Made by a program: the position numbers and the translations under genes
In this document: positions 41,740 through 48,215 of the stretch, piece after piece
Position numbering within the stretch: the first letter of the stretch is position 1
Layout of the letters: every line of letters starts with the position of its first letter
Notes under the pieces: generated by a model
The model's database searches: none
The model's input: the letters and a program-made list of their open reading frames with translations, nothing else
Told to the model about the DNA's origin: nothing
Assembly (NCBI GenBank): GCA_964393645.1
Contig: CAYMUI010000056.1
Coordinates: 1-62,338, forward strand
DNA from: an uncultured Desulfobacterales bacterium
Lineage (GTDB): Bacteria > Desulfobacterota > DSM-4660 > Desulfatiglandales > JALVZP01
DNA: 62,338 nt
Reading direction: 5' to 3'

Positions 41740-44496
41740 ATGAGCAAAGAAAACATAATAACAATAAACGGGCAAGAGTTTAGCTTTGAGCCAGGTGAAA
41801 CCATCTTAGATGTTGCCACAAGAAACGGGATATACATACCAACCTTATGCTACCTAAAAAGAGCTACTCCAACAGGTGCGTGCAGAATATGTGTGGTGGA
41901 AGTAGAGGGAGCCAGAAACTTGGTTGCTTCTTGTTCTACACCTGCCTCTGCTGGAATGAAAATAAAAACAGACAGCCCGCGAGTAATTGAAGCAAGAAGG
42001 CTTAATTTGGAATTGCTTATCTCTTCAGGCAATCATAACTGTCTGGTTCAGGACCTGGATCAACAGGAATGGACAGATTTTCAGCTTAAGAGCATGAAAA
42101 CAGAACCCGAACAAATATGTCCCGCATACGGAGAGTGCAGACTTCAAGACCTTGCAATACGCTACAGGGTAAAACCCAGATTTATTCCAAAGGAGAGCAA
42201 ATACCCAACAGAGGAGAATCCATTTTTCATTAGAGACTTTTCCAGATGCATACTGTGTGGCCGCTGTGTTCAGGCGTGTAACGAAATTCAGGTAAACAAT
42301 GCTATAAGTCTTGGCTACAGAGGAGCTGAATCAAAAGTTGTAGCAAAAGGAGATTATCCACTTACCAAATCAGACTGCGTGTTCTGTGGAGAATGTGTTC
42401 AGGTATGTCCGGTAGGAGCACTTGTTCCAAAAAGTGTTATTGTAAACAAGGTGCTTCCAAATGAAGTAAAAAAGATTAGAACCACCTGTTCTTACTGTGG
42501 AGTGGGATGTCAGATATATCTGCATGTAAAGGACAACAAGGTAGTAAAAGTAACAGGTGTTGAAGAGGCTGCTCCAAATTATGGAAGCCTGTGTGTAAAG
42601 GGAAGGTTTGGATATGACTTTATAAATCATCCTGACAGACTCAAAAAGCCTCTTATAAAGAAAAACGGTGAATTCAAAGAAGCGACATGGGATGAAGCCC
42701 TCGATCTTGTAGCCAACAAGCTAAAAGAAATAAAAGAAAAATTTGGCCCAGATTCCATAGGATTTCTTACCAGCGCAAGAGCAACAAACGAAGAAAATTA
42801 CATCGCTCAAAAATTTACCAGAGCGACTCTGGGAACCAATAACATAGACCACTGCGCTCGTCTCTGACACTCCTCTACCGTGGCAGGTCTTGCCGCGGCA
42901 TTTGGCAGTGGCGCAATGACCAACACTATTGCTGACTTAGAAAAAGCAGAGGTTATCTTAGTAACCGGATCAAACACTACTGAAAACCATCCTGTTATAT
43001 CCTCCTATATAAAGAGAGCAGTTACTCAAAAGGGAGCAAAACTGATAGTAGTTGATCCGAGAAAAATTCCTCTTACTAAATTTGCAACCATATGGATGAG
43101 ACAAAGACTTGGTACAGATGTAGCGTGGATAAACGGAATGATGCATGTAATCATAAAAGAAAACCTCCATGACGAAGAATACATCAAAGAAAGGACCGTT
43201 GGATTTGAAGAAATGAAAAAGGTGGTAGAAAAATATACGCCAGAGTATGTGGAACAGATCACGGGCATCCCTAAGGAAAAGATAATAGAAGCAGCAAGAC
43301 TTTACGGAAAGGCAAGCCGTGCTTCTATCGTATATGCAATGGGAATAACACAGCATATAACAGGCACTGACAATGTTAAATCTCTTGCTAATCTCGCTAT
43401 GCTTTGTGGAAATGTGGGCATTGAGGGGGGCGGAGTAAATCCTCTAAGAGGTCAGAACAATGTACAAGGTGCTTGTGATATGGGAGGACTTCCCAATGTT
43501 TACTCTGGATATCAAAGAGTGGATGATCCTCAGGTGAGAGAAAAGATGGAAAAGGCATGGGGCGTAAGTGCTCTTCCTGACAAGGTTGGTCTTACTGTTA
43601 CAGAAATGATGGAGATGGCGTATAAAGGAGAATTAAAAGCGCTTTATATAATGGGAGAAAACCCGATGGTTTCAGATCCTGACCTCAACCATGTAAAAGA
43701 GGCTCTTCAAAGATTAGACTTTCTCGTGGTTCAGGACATATTCTTGACAGAAACTGCTCAACTTGCTGATGTTGTGCTTCCTTCTGTTTCTTTTGCTGAA
43801 AAAGAAGGGACCTTCACCAATACAGAAAGAAGGGTGCAAAGAGTAAGAAAAGCAGTATCTCCGCCAGGGGAAGCAAAGGAAGACTGGAAGATACTTTGCG
43901 AAATCTCTATGCGTATGGGTTATCCCATGAACTATGGAAGCGCAAAAGACATCATGAGGGAAATAGCCAGTGTGACTCCGTCTTACTCTGGGATAAGCTA
44001 CGAAAGGATAGAAAAAGAGGGAATTCATTGGCCATGCCCGTCTTCTGAACATCCAGGAACACCTATTCTTCATGTAGGAAAATTTGCTTCAGGAAAAGGG
44101 GTATTTCACGCAATTGATTACATACCACCTGCAGAACTACCAGATGAGGAATATCCCTTCTTCCTGACCACAGGAAGAATCCTTTATCAATACCACACAA
44201 GGACGATGACCATGAGAACGCCTTTGAACGAGATAAGTCCAGATTGTTTTGTAGAAATTTCCAGAGATGACGCACGCAAACTTGGGATAAAAACGGATGA
44301 TCTTATAAAGGTGGCATCCAGAAGAGGAGAAATAACAGCAAAGGCAGTTGTTACCGACAGAGTAGACAAAGGCACAATTTTTATCCCGTTCCACTATGCC
44401 AATGCAGCAGCAAATATTCTAACCAACAAGGCTCTTGACCCAGTAGCAAAAATTCCAGAGTACAAAGTATGTGCAGTGAAGATAGAAAAGGCATAG
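41740..44496 (+). CDS. fdhA: Formate dehydrogenase alpha subunit, selenocysteine at TGA 42865-42867 (918 aa)
   Basis: N-terminal Fe-S domains (CRICVVE; CILCGRC; CVFCGEC), CSYCGVGC, then [14 protein letters not shown]; the two ORF-track pieces are in frame; LRGQNNVQG and molybdopterin-binding tail. Confidence 0.96.
42878..42898 (+). promoter_or_regulatory. Bacterial SECIS element of fdhA
   Basis: CCGTGGCA-GGTCT-TGCCGCGG hairpin beginning 11 nt after the TGA; GCAGGUCU core as in the E. coli fdhF SECIS. Confidence 0.88.
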
Positions 44497-44506
44497 GAGG
44501 CTTAAA

Positions 44507-45004
44507 ATGACACATGAAGAACTTTACCAACTTAATCCTGATTTGACTCCAGAAGTGATGCAGGAGATAGACAAAGTTATAGAAGAAAACATTCACAGAC
44601 CAGGTTGCCTTATTCCTGTGCTTACTAAGTGTCAGGAAATACTCGGTTACATTCCTGTAGAACTGCAGGAATACTTAAGTGAAAGGCTAAACATACCAGG
44701 AAGCAACATCTACGGGGTTGTAAGCTTTTACTCTTTTTTTTCTATGATTCCTAAGGGAAGACACACGATAAAAATATGCGAAGGAACTGCTTGTTATGTG
44801 CAAGGAAGCTACAGAATACGGGATTTTATATGTAACGAATATGGACTTGAACCAGGAGGTACCACTAAGGATAGAAGATTCTCGCTGCAAGTAGTTAGGT
44901 GTCTTGGTGCGTGTGGTCTTGCACCAGTTATGATGGTGGATAATGACACATATGGAAAATTAACTATCGATAGTGTGAAAGAGATACTGGACAGATATGA
45001 GTGA
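44507..45004 (+). CDS. NuoE/HydC-like [2Fe-2S] subunit
   Basis: GVVSFYSFF, ICEGTACYVQG, VRCLGACGLAPVM. Confidence 0.95.
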   Translation: MTHEELYQLNPDLTPEVMQEIDKVIEENIHRPGCLIPVLTKCQEILGYIPVELQEYLSERLNIPGSNIYGVVSFYSFFSMIPKGRHTIKICEGTACYVQGSYRIRDFICNEYGLEPGGTTKDRRFSLQVVRCLGACGLAPVMMVDNDTYGKLTIDSVKEILDRYE

Positions 45005-45031
45005 GAAAAAGAGCTACGGAGGAGTTTAGTC

Positions 45032-46906
45032 ATGTCAAAGCTTACAGTACAAGATCTCGACAAGATAAAAGAGAATATGCAAAAGGAAATGTTGCTTAGA
45101 GAAGGGAAAAAAACGCCTGCTGCAAAGCATAGATTACACCTCATGCTTTGTAGTGGTACAGGATGTCAAGCCTCTGGCAGTAAAGAAGTAAAAAAAGCCT
45201 TAGAAGAAGAACTAAAAAAAGCAGGACTTGATAAGGAAGTACTCATTGTGGAGACAGGTTGTAACGGCTTTTGCGCTCAAGGGCCCGTTATGGTGGTTCA
45301 TCCTGACAACATATTTTACCAAAAGTTGAAACCAGAACATGCCCCTCTGCTTGTCGAAGAACACTTTCTTAAAGGAAAACCAGTAGAAAAGCTCATGTAC
45401 AAAGATGCTGCCACCAAAAAGGTGATCCCACTGTTGGATCAAATTCCGTTCTTTTCAAATCAAATGGCCATTGTGTTAAAAAACAGAGGGCTTATAGATC
45501 CGGAAAACATAGATGAATACATAGCAAGAGATGGATACAAAGCCGTTGCAAAAGCTCTCTTAGATATGAGCCCTGAAGAGATAATAGAAGAGATAAAAAG
45601 ATCAGGGTTGAGAGGAAGAGGAGGAGCTGGATTTCCAACCGGACTTAAGTGGGAGTTTGCAAGAAAGGCCCCAGGTGATGTGAAGTATATAATCTGCAAT
45701 GCAGATGAAGGAGATCCTGGAGCATTTATGGACAGAAGTGTATTGGAAGGAGATCCTCATGCGGTGCTGGAAGGGATGATTATAGGAGCAAAAGCGATTG
45801 GTGCTATTAGGGGGTTCATATACTGCAGAGCAGAATATCCTTTGGCACTAAGAAGACTCGAAATAGCTATATCACAAGCAAAAGAATATGGTCTGTTGGG
45901 AGAAGATATACTTGGAAGCGGATTCAACTTCGACATTGAGATATATCAAGGAGCGGGTGCATTCGTATGTGGTGAAGAAACCGCACTTATGGCCTCCATA
46001 GAAGGAAGAAGGGGAAATCCAAGGCCAAGACCTCCTTACCCTGCTCAAAAAGGGCTTTGGGGAAAACCAACAGTGATAAATAATGTGGAAACCTTTGCAA
46101 ATGTTCCAAAGATTATACTTAACGGTGGAGATTGGTTCGCGGGTATAGGCACGGAGAAAAGCAAAGGAACAAAAGTATTTGCGCTTACGGGCGATGTAAA
46201 CAACATAGGGCTTGTGGAAGTGCCCATGGGAACTACACTCAGAACCATAATATTTGATATTGGAGGAGGAATACCTAAAAAAAGAAAATTCAAAGCTGTC
46301 CAACTTGGTGGGCCTTCTGGTGGATGTATTCCTGAAAAGTATCTGGATACACCGGTAGATTACGAATCTATCACGGAGTTGGGGGCAATAATGGGCTCAG
46401 GCGGAATGATTGTTATGGATGAAAAAACATGTATGGTAGATATGGCAAGATTTTTCTTGAGATTTATCCAAGATGAGTCTTGTGGAAAATGTCCCCCATG
46501 TCGTGAAGGAACGGGAAGAATGCTGGAGATCTTGGACAGGATAGTGGAAGGAAAAGGAGAACCCGGAGATATAGAGCTTCTGGAAGAATTGAGTTACATG
46601 ATAAGGGATACAGCCCTGTGTGGACTTGGGCAGACAGGACCAAACCCGGTTCTTTCAACCCTGAGACACTTCAGAGAGGAATACGAAGCGCACATATACG
46701 AAAAGAGATGCCCTGCAAAGGTTTGCAAGGCATTACTAAAATTTGAAGTAGATGAAGACAAGTGCAAAAGATGTGGAATATGTTACAAAAATTGTCCAGC
46801 AGGAGCTATTGAATGGGAGAAGAAGAAAACAGCACGCATAATAAAGGACAAGTGTATAAAGTGTATGACATGTATAATGAACTGCCCAGCAGATGCCATC
46901 TTTTAA
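45032..46906 (+). CDS. NuoF/HydB-like NADH/FMN-binding subunit with extra N- and C-terminal Fe-S domains
   Basis: CSGTGC...GCNGFC, GLRGRGGAGF, NADEGDPGAFMDR, GAGAFVCGEET, GGPSGG, CGKCPPCREG, two C-terminal CxxCxxCxxxCP. Confidence 0.96.
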   Translation: MSKLTVQDLDKIKENMQKEMLLREGKKTPAAKHRLHLMLCSGTGCQASGSKEVKKALEEELKKAGLDKEVLIVETGCNGFCAQGPVMVVHPDNIFYQKLKPEHAPLLVEEHFLKGKPVEKLMYKDAATKKVIPLLDQIPFFSNQMAIVLKNRGLIDPENIDEYIARDGYKAVAKALLDMSPEEIIEEIKRSGLRGRGGAGFPTGLKWEFARKAPGDVKYIICNADEGDPGAFMDRSVLEGDPHAVLEGMIIGAKAIGAIRGFIYCRAEYPLALRRLEIAISQAKEYGLLGEDILGSGFNFDIEIYQGAGAFVCGEETALMASIEGRRGNPRPRPPYPAQKGLWGKPTVINNVETFANVPKIILNGGDWFAGIGTEKSKGTKVFALTGDVNNIGLVEVPMGTTLRTIIFDIGGGIPKKRKFKAVQLGGPSGGCIPEKYLDTPVDYESITELGAIMGSGGMIVMDEKTCMVDMARFFLRFIQDESCGKCPPCREGTGRMLEILDRIVEGKGEPGDIELLEELSYMIRDTALCGLGQTGPNPVLSTLRHFREEYEAHIYEKRCPAKVCKALLKFEVDEDKCKRCGICYKNCPAGAIEWEKKKTARIIKDKCIKCMTCIMNCPADAIF

Positions 46907-48215
46907 ACAGAGTACTTTGAGAAAGGAGCTGGGGTTTTGGGACTCTATAGCTATATCAGTAGGTATTGCTATAGGAGTGGGGATATTCAGGGTTCCATCA
47001 GAAATAGCGGCTATAATGCCGTATCCCCAGCTCATTATAACAGCTTGGCTTGTAGGTGGACTGCTATGCCTATTTGGTGCTCTATGTTATGCTGAACTTT
47101 CTTCTACCTTTCCAGAAACAGGTGGAGACTATGTCTACATAAGGGAAAACTATGGGCTTCTTCCTGCATTTCTCTACGGGTGGGCCTCTATATTTATCAT
47201 CAGAACAGGAATAATAGCAGCGGTTGCTTTTGTATTTTCAGAATACCTGTGTTCGCTCACTTGTCTGTGTAAAGGGTTTATCAAACCCGTTGCCATAAGC
47301 ACTATTGTATCTCTGTCGCTGATAAATGGAATAGGTGTAAGAATTGGAAAAAATCTATTAAATTTGTCGGTAATGACCAAAGTCATTGCCCTTGTTGTGC
47401 TTATTATATGTGCTCTTTCTTCATCTAAAGGAAGCACAGAAAATCTTCATGTAGGATTGGATAAAAGCGCTTTCGAAATAGTCAATATGTTTGCCCTTGC
47501 ACTTGTGCCCGTGCTTTGGACTTATGGGGGATGGCATGAAAGCACATTTATGACAGGTGAAACAAAAGATGCTCAAAAAGTTCTTCCCATAGCACTTATT
47601 ACAGCCACTTTAATCATAACGGGAATATATGTTCTTCTTAATGTAAGCTATCTGTATCTCATCCCTGTCCAGTCAGTCAAAGAACTTCCCCTTATAGCAG
47701 GAGAAGTAATGAAACTTATATTTGGAAAGTGGGCAAAAAAAGGCATAGAATTTTTAATAGTCATTTCATCCTTTGGAACGCTCAATGCTACCATAATGAC
47801 ATCCAGCAGGATCACCTATGCTATGAGTAAAGACAATCCATTTTTTAAATATCTATCTCGTATAAGTACCAGATTCGGTACCCCTTTTAGAGCGCTCGTA
47901 CTGAATGCCGTCTTGGCTTCAATTCTCGTGGCATGGGGAACATTTAACAAACTGCTCTTTTTTACAGGTCTTCTGGTATGGCTGTTTTTTGGTGTGATTG
48001 TGTCAGCTGTGATTGTGTCAAGGATAAAGTACCCTGAACTAAAAAGACCGTTTAAAGCGTGGGGCTATCCTTTTACCCCCGTGGTATTTGCTTGTGTGTG
48101 TTTCTGGATGTGTGTTGATATATTTTTTAGATATAAGTTGCAGTCCATATGTGGTTTAGGAATCATGATAAGTGGAATAGTGGTTTATAAGATAAGCATG
48201 AGTTTAAAAATTTGA
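46893..48215 (+). CDS. APC-superfamily amino acid permease
   Basis: GIAIGVGIF, YAELSSTFPETGGDYVY, YGGWHE, RITYAMS, RPFKAWGYP; multiple TM segments. Confidence 0.93.
   Translation: MPSFKQSTLRKELGFWDSIAISVGIAIGVGIFRVPSEIAAIMPYPQLIITAWLVGGLLCLFGALCYAELSSTFPETGGDYVYIRENYGLLPAFLYGWASIFIIRTGIIAAVAFVFSEYLCSLTCLCKGFIKPVAISTIVSLSLINGIGVRIGKNLLNLSVMTKVIALVVLIICALSSSKGSTENLHVGLDKSAFEIVNMFALALVPVLWTYGGWHESTFMTGETKDAQKVLPIALITATLIITGIYVLLNVSYLYLIPVQSVKELPLIAGEVMKLIFGKWAKKGIEFLIVISSFGTLNATIMTSSRITYAMSKDNPFFKYLSRISTRFGTPFRALVLNAVLASILVAWGTFNKLLFFTGLLVWLFFGVIVSAVIVSRIKYPELKRPFKAWGYPFTPVVFACVCFWMCVDIFFRYKLQSICGLGIMISGIVVYKISMSLKI

Follow-up and report, generated by a model that had tools for sequence, protein, structure and literature searches.

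A predicted electron-bifurcating, selenocysteine-containing formate dehydrogenase in an uncultured Desulfobacterales bacterium

Described formate dehydrogenases and the fdhA-bfuC-bfuB locus

Among the formate dehydrogenases (FDHs) for which electron bifurcation has been proposed, the Type 1 Fdh-Bfu class was defined and predicted by Schut et al. in 2022, with Carboxydothermus hydrogenoformans as an example (PMC9304861). Here we describe three closely packed genes, fdhA, bfuC (NuoE/HydC-like) and bfuB (NuoF/HydB-like), on the plus strand at positions 41740-46906 of contig CAYMUI010000056.1 from an uncultured Desulfobacterales bacterium; the whole contig of 62,338 nucleotides is referred to as the window. 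Judging from their sequences, the three products probably form a cytoplasmic FdhA-BfuC-BfuB heterotrimer, a bifurcating Type 1 Fdh member of the BfuABC (HydABC) family. Bifurcating FDHs allow anaerobes to reduce CO2 or oxidize formate while balancing their NADH and ferredoxin pools, a function at the heart of Wood-Ljungdahl carbon fixation and of life under energy limitation. The idea of a bifurcating FDH is not new, and this enzyme type has been predicted repeatedly, also for Syntrophobacter Fdh1. The window enzyme alone leaves the expectations of specialists unchanged; its main value is as a candidate for the first proof of a fused Fdh-Bfu enzyme. It could lend itself well to expression, assay and cryo-EM, because the locus is compact, is free of the regulatory cassette found in some relatives, and encodes the only HydB-type flavoprotein of its genome.

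PMC9304861 names only the multi-subunit complexes of Gottschalkia (Clostridium) acidurici and Clostridium autoethanogenum as FDHs biochemically shown to bifurcate. The Type 1 enzymes given as characterized in the same paper are FeFe-hydrogenases and Nfn only. The HylCBA-FdhF2 complex of G. acidurici is a proven NAD+/ferredoxin-bifurcating FDH (Wang et al. 2013, as cited in PMC9304861). It resembles the window enzyme in having a BfuBC-type core and a W/Se FDH unit and in catalyzing the same reaction that we propose here. Unlike the window enzyme, in which both parts lie on one polypeptide, it is of Type 3, with FdhF2 separate from the HydA-like HylA.

Fdh1 of Syntrophobacter fumaroxidans (Sfum_2703-06), for which confurcation has long been predicted, has been termed a "confurcating formate dehydrogenase" (PMC5947623). 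By description only, it can be likened to our enzyme as a cytoplasmic FDH with a HydB/51-kDa-type subunit from a sulfate-reducing member of the Thermodesulfobacteriota. In contrast to our three genes, the Fdh1 locus tags span four, and S. fumaroxidans lives as a syntroph and has hydrogenases as well as periplasmic FDHs; we found neither in the draft genome that contains the window. The W/Se FDH-1 of this organism (about 89, 56 and 19 kDa) was reportedly purified in 2003 and assayed with viologens only. Equivalent enzymes have been called "FdhA-NuoEF" in a study that applied the same Losey motifs as are used below (PMC10689502), and "FdhA-HydBC" elsewhere; D. phosphitoxidans carries a nuoEF-fdhF unit.

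The window locus shares with Type 1 Fdh-Bfu enzymes, as described in PMC9304861, the three subunits, the FDH domain fused to a BfuA relay, a BfuB with sites B1-B5 and FMN, and a BfuC with C1. The NiFe-HydB of A. mobile, the closest solved B subunit, has been grouped with this type of FDH in clade 49 (PMC9304861). The locus differs in its gene order A-C-B, in its Thermodesulfobacteriota lineage and in a 25-residue insert in the His-cluster motif of FdhA. The closest solved B and C subunits, with ligands that align, are those of the A. mobile NiFe-HydABCSL (7T2R/7T30) and the FeFe-HydABC of A. woodii, T. kivui and T. maritima; in those enzymes the third substrate is H2 and the catalytic module a hydrogenase, whereas the window encodes a module for formate. 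The FdsABGD of Rhodobacter capsulatus (6TGA) and FdsABG of Cupriavidus necator (6VW7) have the same FdsA layout and NuoE/NuoF-type partners. In contrast to our enzyme, they have Cys instead of selenocysteine (Sec), are oxygen-tolerant and NAD+-dependent without bifurcation, and their FdsB lacks the N-terminal [2Fe-2S] domain and the C-terminal 2x[4Fe-4S] domain and carries a non-bifurcating signature. We found no structure of an FDH-type BfuABC in a search of the Protein Data Bank (PDB).

Selenocysteine decoding, cofactor ligands and bifurcation residues

The open reading frames lie at exactly the positions for which a Sec-FDH with HydB/HydC-like partners had originally been predicted (Table 1). 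The spacers are 10 nt between fdhA and bfuC and 27 nt between bfuC and bfuB, both downstream genes have a good Shine-Dalgarno sequence, and we saw no convincing plus-strand terminator inside the three-gene unit. Domain-match E-values over the three proteins range from 1e-47 to 1e-286, which rules out chance matches.

Table 1. Features of the window locus, related loci and the paralogue (G, C and L numbers are our handles for genomes, contigs and loci)
Feature	Coordinates	Strand	Basis or remarks
fdhA, BfuA-type catalytic subunit	41740..44496	+	918 aa; TIGR01591 and Pfam domains
FdhA insert L102-I126, 25 residues	42043..42117	+	Alignment; between ligands 2 and 3 of the His-ligated cluster motif
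TGA read as selenocysteine U376	42865..42867	+	Motif ARL-U-HSSTV, catalytic Sec/Cys position
SECIS-like hairpin, 8-bp stem, GGUCU loop	42878..42898	+	Begins 11 nt after UGA
bfuC (HydC/NuoE-like), 165 aa	44507..45004	+	PF01257, E = 2e-47; AGGAGG upstream
bfuB (HydB/NuoF-like), 624 aa, FMN/NAD(H) site	45032..46906	+	Domain search and alignment to solved HydB
BfuB N-terminal thioredoxin-like [2Fe-2S] domain (B5)	45125..45358	+	PF01257, residues 32-109; C40/C45/C77/C81
BfuB C-terminal 2x[4Fe-4S] ferredoxin domain (B3/B4)	46742..46903	+	Fer4 motifs, residues 571-623
Regulatory cassette splitting the FDH operon in relatives	L127:10038-14177 (G018), L123:8903-9875 (G004)		HydS-like: PF02906 and ferredoxin/FeS motifs
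Cys-type FdhA paralogue, 899 aa	Contig C41:8917-11616 = L019:5918-8617	-	TIGR01591, 796 bits

The segments 41740-42867 and 42880-44496 of fdhA are in a single frame, broken only by the TGA. In the alignment, the Sec376 position is TGA in seven extracted orthologues and Cys in four others and in a paralogue from the same genome. The selenocysteine insertion sequence (SECIS) hairpin was compared over nine TGA-containing orthologues. Its GGUCU loop is invariant, 97% of cells are paired, and in four of the eight stem pairs both sides have changed. Its covariation is 0.514 versus 0.177 in shuffles (0/500), and at most 0.10 with the partner slid; the folding energy by itself is unexceptional (z = -1.6). 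We take the hairpin spacing and the loop residues G23/U24 to match those of the E. coli fdhF SECIS. The genome encodes selA, selB, tRNA-Sec (selC) and selD, which had been suggested as a check, and also fdhD. Given the common frame, the TGA at the catalytic site, the covarying SECIS and the Sec machinery, we rejected the possibility that the two fdhA reading frames are a broken gene. The selD gene (contig C36:3309-4232, minus strand) itself holds an in-frame TGA, so that selenophosphate synthetase is a selenoprotein too.

The domains of FdhA are Fer2_4, a partial NuoG-type His-cluster motif, 2x[4Fe-4S], Molybdop_Fe4S4, Molybdopterin and Molydop_binding. A single 918-residue frame thus carries the Fer2_4, Fer4 and FDH domains, and the unit has no extra catalytic subunit, as in Type 1 Fdh-Bfu enzymes. 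The HydA/NuoG-like clusters that precede the FDH part bear out the HydA-like N-terminal Fe-S relay of the original prediction. Their ligands are C37/C48/C51/C65 for the [2Fe-2S] cluster, H99/C101/C127/C133 for the His-type [4Fe-4S] cluster, and C170-C180 and C213-C223 for the two ferredoxin-type [4Fe-4S] clusters; they are followed by the proximal FDH [4Fe-4S] cluster (C250/C253/C257/C285). By alignment, the active site contains the U376-H377 dyad and the conserved R570, and the domains that bind bis-MGD are present. FdhA scores 950 bits against TIGR01591 (formate dehydrogenase alpha; cut-off 666), and its best solved matches in the PDB are the F420-dependent, HDCR, Methylobacterium and Rhodobacter FDHs. 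It is 43-91% identical to its orthologues and to its paralogue. The prediction had also excluded a signal peptide and a membrane subunit, and indeed FdhA starts without a twin-arginine leader, and no membrane subunit is encoded by the three genes. A periplasmic or membrane FDH of the FdnGHI/FdhAB type was rejected because of the absence of this leader, the score of 376 bits against TIGR01553 (periplasmic/membrane-bound FDH type), which is below the cut-off of 814, and the NuoE/NuoF-like neighbours in place of an FdnH-type beta subunit.

The His-cluster motif of FdhA reads H-x-C-(25 aa)-C-x5-C in place of H-x3-C-x2-C-x5-C, and its PF10588 match is only partial. The insert, with a conserved W-T-D-F-Q, is common to the closest orthologues (G004, G018, G035, G027, G033 and G002); the alignment shows none in G040 or in FDH-type loci from other phyla.

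BfuB contains the domains 2Fe-2S_thioredx, Complex1_51K (PF01512, 1e-47), SLBB, NADH_4Fe-4S (PF10589, 4e-35) and two Fer4 motifs. The hallmarks of the Bfu family are the [B1-FMN-C1] site, B2 (Zn), B5 (an N-terminal [2Fe-2S] or Zn site) and B3/B4 (PMC11829005, PMC9304861), and B homologues that do not bifurcate are without the B2-B5 sites (PMC9304861, PMC11829005). The B1 [4Fe-4S] ligands of BfuB (C484/C487/C490/C530) align with those of solved HydB subunits, three conserved residues of the Zn-type B2 site were identified (H554/C560/C565), and all eight cysteines of B3/B4 are conserved (C578/C581/C584/C588 and C608/C611/C614/C618). In residue-by-residue alignments with 7t2r_B, 7q4v_B and 8a6t_B, every metal ligand identified in BfuB is conserved. 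The extra N-terminal [2Fe-2S] domain and the two C-terminal [4Fe-4S] motifs claimed for the beta subunit are therefore present with their ligands intact. In solved relatives the B3/B4 end reduces ferredoxin, and deletion of B3/B4 from the T. kivui HydABC kills bifurcation (PMC11829005).

Bifurcating B subunits have been recognized by Ala/Glu plus Met close to the NADH site, by Phe close to FMN and by a GGPSG motif within the SLBB region (Losey 2020; PMC7311640). Their counterparts in non-bifurcating proteins are Thr/Ser plus Lys/Ser/Ala near NADH and Tyr near FMN. BfuB has the bifurcating residues at all three places: A231 and M233 (E226-GDPGAFM-233), F311 (G307-AGAF-311) and G426-GPSG-430. 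The motifs noted originally (GDPG-A-F-M, GAGA-F and GGPSG) are thus all there, and the control, E. coli NuoF, differs at each of them (EPGTYK, GAGRY and GGAGT, with T, K and Y as the diagnostic residues). BfuB also lacks the restriction to FMN and one [4Fe-4S] cluster, with non-bifurcating residues, by which FdsABG-type beta subunits are recognized.

Searched against the whole PDB, BfuB matched nine solved Bfu-type B subunits with 711-916 bits. The A. mobile NiFe-HydB (7t2r) was closest (916 bits), followed by A. woodii HydB (859 bits), T. kivui HydB (780 bits), and Stn, Nfn, 9mqx_B and T. maritima HydB (766-711 bits). The non-bifurcating FdsB proteins of C. necator and R. capsulatus scored 430 and 371 bits, and NuoF and Nqo1 about 400 bits. 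The ranking of the HydC-type matches of BfuC parallels that for BfuB, with the NiFe-HydC 7t2r_C (150 bits) and A. woodii HydC (146 bits) as best solved matches. The ligands of the C1 [2Fe-2S] cluster, as read from the BfuC sequence, are C91/C96/C132/C136.

A quick maximum-likelihood tree of 99 B-subunit sequences, labelled by gene context, placed BfuB in a clade of 27 sequences, mostly from Thermodesulfobacteriota (support 100). This clade is nested in a 92-row group of long HydB-type (Bfu-type) sequences (support 97), which takes in HydB proteins linked to FeFe-hydrogenases (e.g., Thermoanaerobacter) and leaves out E. coli NuoF and the short NuoF-like sequences of related genomes. The only references of characterized type in the tree were the Thermoanaerobacter HydB relative and E. 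coli NuoF; HydB of T. maritima, S. wolfei and S. aciditrophicus, G. acidurici HylB, R. capsulatus FdsB and the S. fumaroxidans Fdh1 beta subunit were not in it. Grouping with non-bifurcating clades, the outcome named beforehand as speaking against bifurcation, was not observed in this tree.

The gene order fdhA-bfuC-(0-4.3 kb)-bfuB recurs in the family and order (G004, G018, G035, G027, G033 and G040), versus C-B-A in most related loci from other phyla. In G004, from the same family, the full neighbourhood kdsD-trmO-recD2-fdhA-bfuC-bfuB is retained.

Proposed reaction and alternative explanations

In the mechanism that we propose, formate would be oxidized at the Sec-ligated W/Mo-bis-pyranopterin site of FdhA (U376, H377, R570), and electrons would run through the one [2Fe-2S] cluster and the four [4Fe-4S] clusters of FdhA until they reach the [B1-FMN-C1] site of BfuB and BfuC. 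Electron pairs would be split there. Two electrons would reduce NAD+ at FMN, and two low-potential electrons would exit via C1 to the C-terminal B3/B4 clusters of BfuB, where ferredoxin would be reduced. The overall reaction would be 2 formate + NAD+ + 2 Fd(ox) = 2 CO2 + NADH + 2 Fd(red). It would be fully reversible, with NADH and reduced ferredoxin (Fd) jointly driving CO2 reduction. Every sequence test agrees with the soluble trimeric NAD+/ferredoxin-bifurcating FDH of the original prediction, from which we infer the ferredoxin coupling and the formation of the complex; the use of NAD over NADP is likewise presumed, with W or Mo as candidate metals and either the oxidative or the reductive direction conceivable in vivo.

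Several points weigh against this reading. In our literature search, we found no demonstrated ferredoxin coupling for any fused three-subunit Fdh-Bfu enzyme, and thermodynamics require no coupling, since the transfer of electrons from formate to NAD+ is already exergonic. The Losey residues were derived from just 17 sequences, and specificity for NAD or NADP cannot be read from the sequence. The BfuBC core is promiscuous, because close relatives of it adjoin other partners or none: cores much like that of the window occur in related genomes with a GltD-like partner or without any. This agrees with the remark of Schut et al. that Bfu enzymes of the FDH type turn up at scattered places in the BfuB tree (PMC9304861). 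In G002, a 93%-complete genome of the same genus, unrelated genes come after the fdhA orthologue, and we found no bfuB.

The enzyme could instead be a simple NAD(H)-dependent soluble FDH like the FdsABG of Rhodobacter and Cupriavidus, with NADH/NAD+ as its sole partner and extra clusters that are structural or vestigial. The exergonic reaction and the lack of a coupling assay for a Type 1 Fdh-Bfu in the literature suit such an enzyme, and the alignment between FdhA and R. capsulatus FdsA (6tg9_A; 742 bits, residues 7-915) is full-length. The resemblance does not extend to BfuB, whose bits to FdsB are under half those to the A. mobile HydB, which has the residues of the bifurcating type, and which falls in the Bfu-type group of the tree. 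The B2-B5 sites, lacking in non-bifurcating homologues, are present with intact identified ligands, and we consider a simple NAD(H)-dependent enzyme unlikely. Bifurcation or confurcation with NADP(H) seems more improbable still. It has a precedent within the family, the NADP-specific Hyt/FDH complex of C. autoethanogenum (PMC9304861). By the description in PMC9304861 alone, however, the clade of our enzyme differs from the Firmicutes FdhFeFe clade 45; the closest solved cores (the A. mobile NiFe-hydrogenase and the HydABC of A. woodii, T. kivui and T. maritima) use NAD(H), and near the FMN/NAD site the sequence of BfuB is almost identical to theirs.

Of the alternatives, we give somewhat more room, tentatively, to BfuBC being a shared or exchangeable module, which may serve the Cys-type FdhA paralogue as well, or to FdhA acting alone with ferredoxin through its HydA-like clusters. 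The paralogue has the same N-terminal relay and is an orphan on contig C41, with no NuoE/NuoF-like or other electron-transfer genes beside it. The genome holds only one HydB/NuoF-type gene, bfuB, the only other Complex1_51K match being RnfC. The BfuBC cores of relatives that lack an A subunit, and the fdhA of G002 that lacks adjacent bfuCB genes, point the same way. Against this, the tight translational spacing and the synteny of fdhA-bfuC-bfuB across the order argue for a dedicated complex, and there is no direct sign that the paralogue binds BfuB. A dedicated, bifurcating FdhA-BfuC-BfuB complex remains the reading that we favour.

Host genome, paralogue and related loci

The host genome (1.82 Mb in 96 contigs, 96% complete) encodes DsrAB, QrcB, RnfCD, AcsB/CdhC and formyl-tetrahydrofolate synthetase (FTHFS), and three studies have yielded hydrothermal-vent metagenomes that contain DNA of the window. 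A sulfate reducer of hydrothermal vents, the host has a small genome in which Wood-Ljungdahl genes and Rnf are present. A Mo/W transporter, another suggested check, is represented by the tungstate transporter WtpABC. We did not find a [NiFe]- or [FeFe]-hydrogenase, a FocA-type formate channel or a periplasmic FDH above the cut-off in the 96%-complete genome (its other molybdoenzymes are PhsA/Psr/Qrc-like); these are absences in a draft and not proofs. The FDH probably acts at the formate/CO2 step of the Wood-Ljungdahl pathway, while Rnf would keep the NADH and ferredoxin pools in balance. The negative searches for a hydrogenase, a formate channel and a periplasmic FDH make us prefer this role over interspecies formate transfer and render syntrophic formate export by the host less likely. 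Of the two suggested contexts, syntrophy and autotrophy, the second thus fits better. In this group, it is unusual for a sulfate reducer to have no detected hydrogenase, FocA channel or periplasmic FDH, which hints at a way of life that trades neither H2 nor formate.

The Cys-type FdhA paralogue is 43% identical to the window FdhA and has the motif ARLCHS. The His-cluster loop of this protein retains H-x3-C-x2-C and in addition has a Cys-rich form of the insert, possibly an extra metal site. The gene is surrounded by genes for an M16/PreP-like peptidase and an ArsP permease and by a B12-radical-SAM gene, and orthologues were found in the same family only (G001 and G003). The paralogue might share the lone BfuBC core or work directly with ferredoxin. 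That the single core serves Sec-FdhA and Cys-FdhA interchangeably is doubtful; if true, it would amount to a selenium-dependent subunit swap on one bifurcating core. The paralogue and the FdhA insert are side questions.

Overlapping the end of bfuB, a gene for an APC-family amino-acid permease (46893-48215, plus strand) starts 14 nt upstream of the bfuB stop codon and, because of this overlap, is probably co-transcribed with bfuB. We rejected the permease as a functional part of the FDH unit: in G001, of the same genus, bfuB is followed directly by a HcyBio gene, which makes the permease a non-conserved neighbour.

The closest named relatives of BfuB, from Desulfobacterales and Desulfosarcina metagenome-assembled genomes (69-74% identity), have no FDH link. 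At L024:6963-11916, BfuC, a DRTGG protein and BfuB are followed by a 684-residue GltD-like flavoprotein with an RnfB-type Fe-S N-terminus and then by RseC. At L022:2456-4819, a bare BfuC-BfuB pair is followed by a sigma factor. In G002 (L150:6524-7877), the 91%-identical fdhA is followed by a 198-residue protein, a possible transposase fragment recognized by eye, and a cupin-like start; the separation of this fdhA from bfuCB is either a rearrangement or an assembly gap. In G027 (L129:1124-3514), the FdhA-like gene upstream of bfuC is apparently truncated and its active site is degenerate, with SLSSLGDPS replacing HCARL(U/C)HSS and Ala replacing the catalytic Arg. From its sequence, it may encode an A subunit that has decayed or lacks catalytic function. 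The FDH-linked BfuB of G040 (L132:7690-9567) has N, A and G at C77 and C81 (B5 ligands) and C490 (a B1 ligand), respectively, which may reflect either genuine variation or an alignment error confined to this region.

Regulatory genes spanning 1-4.3 kb lie between bfuC and bfuB in several relatives; the window copy has none of these. The cassettes encode DRTGG proteins, GHKL/RsbW-like ATPases, a PHP protein and a HydS-like homologue of sensory [FeFe]-hydrogenases. The presence of this putative H2 sensor within a formate dehydrogenase operon is curious.

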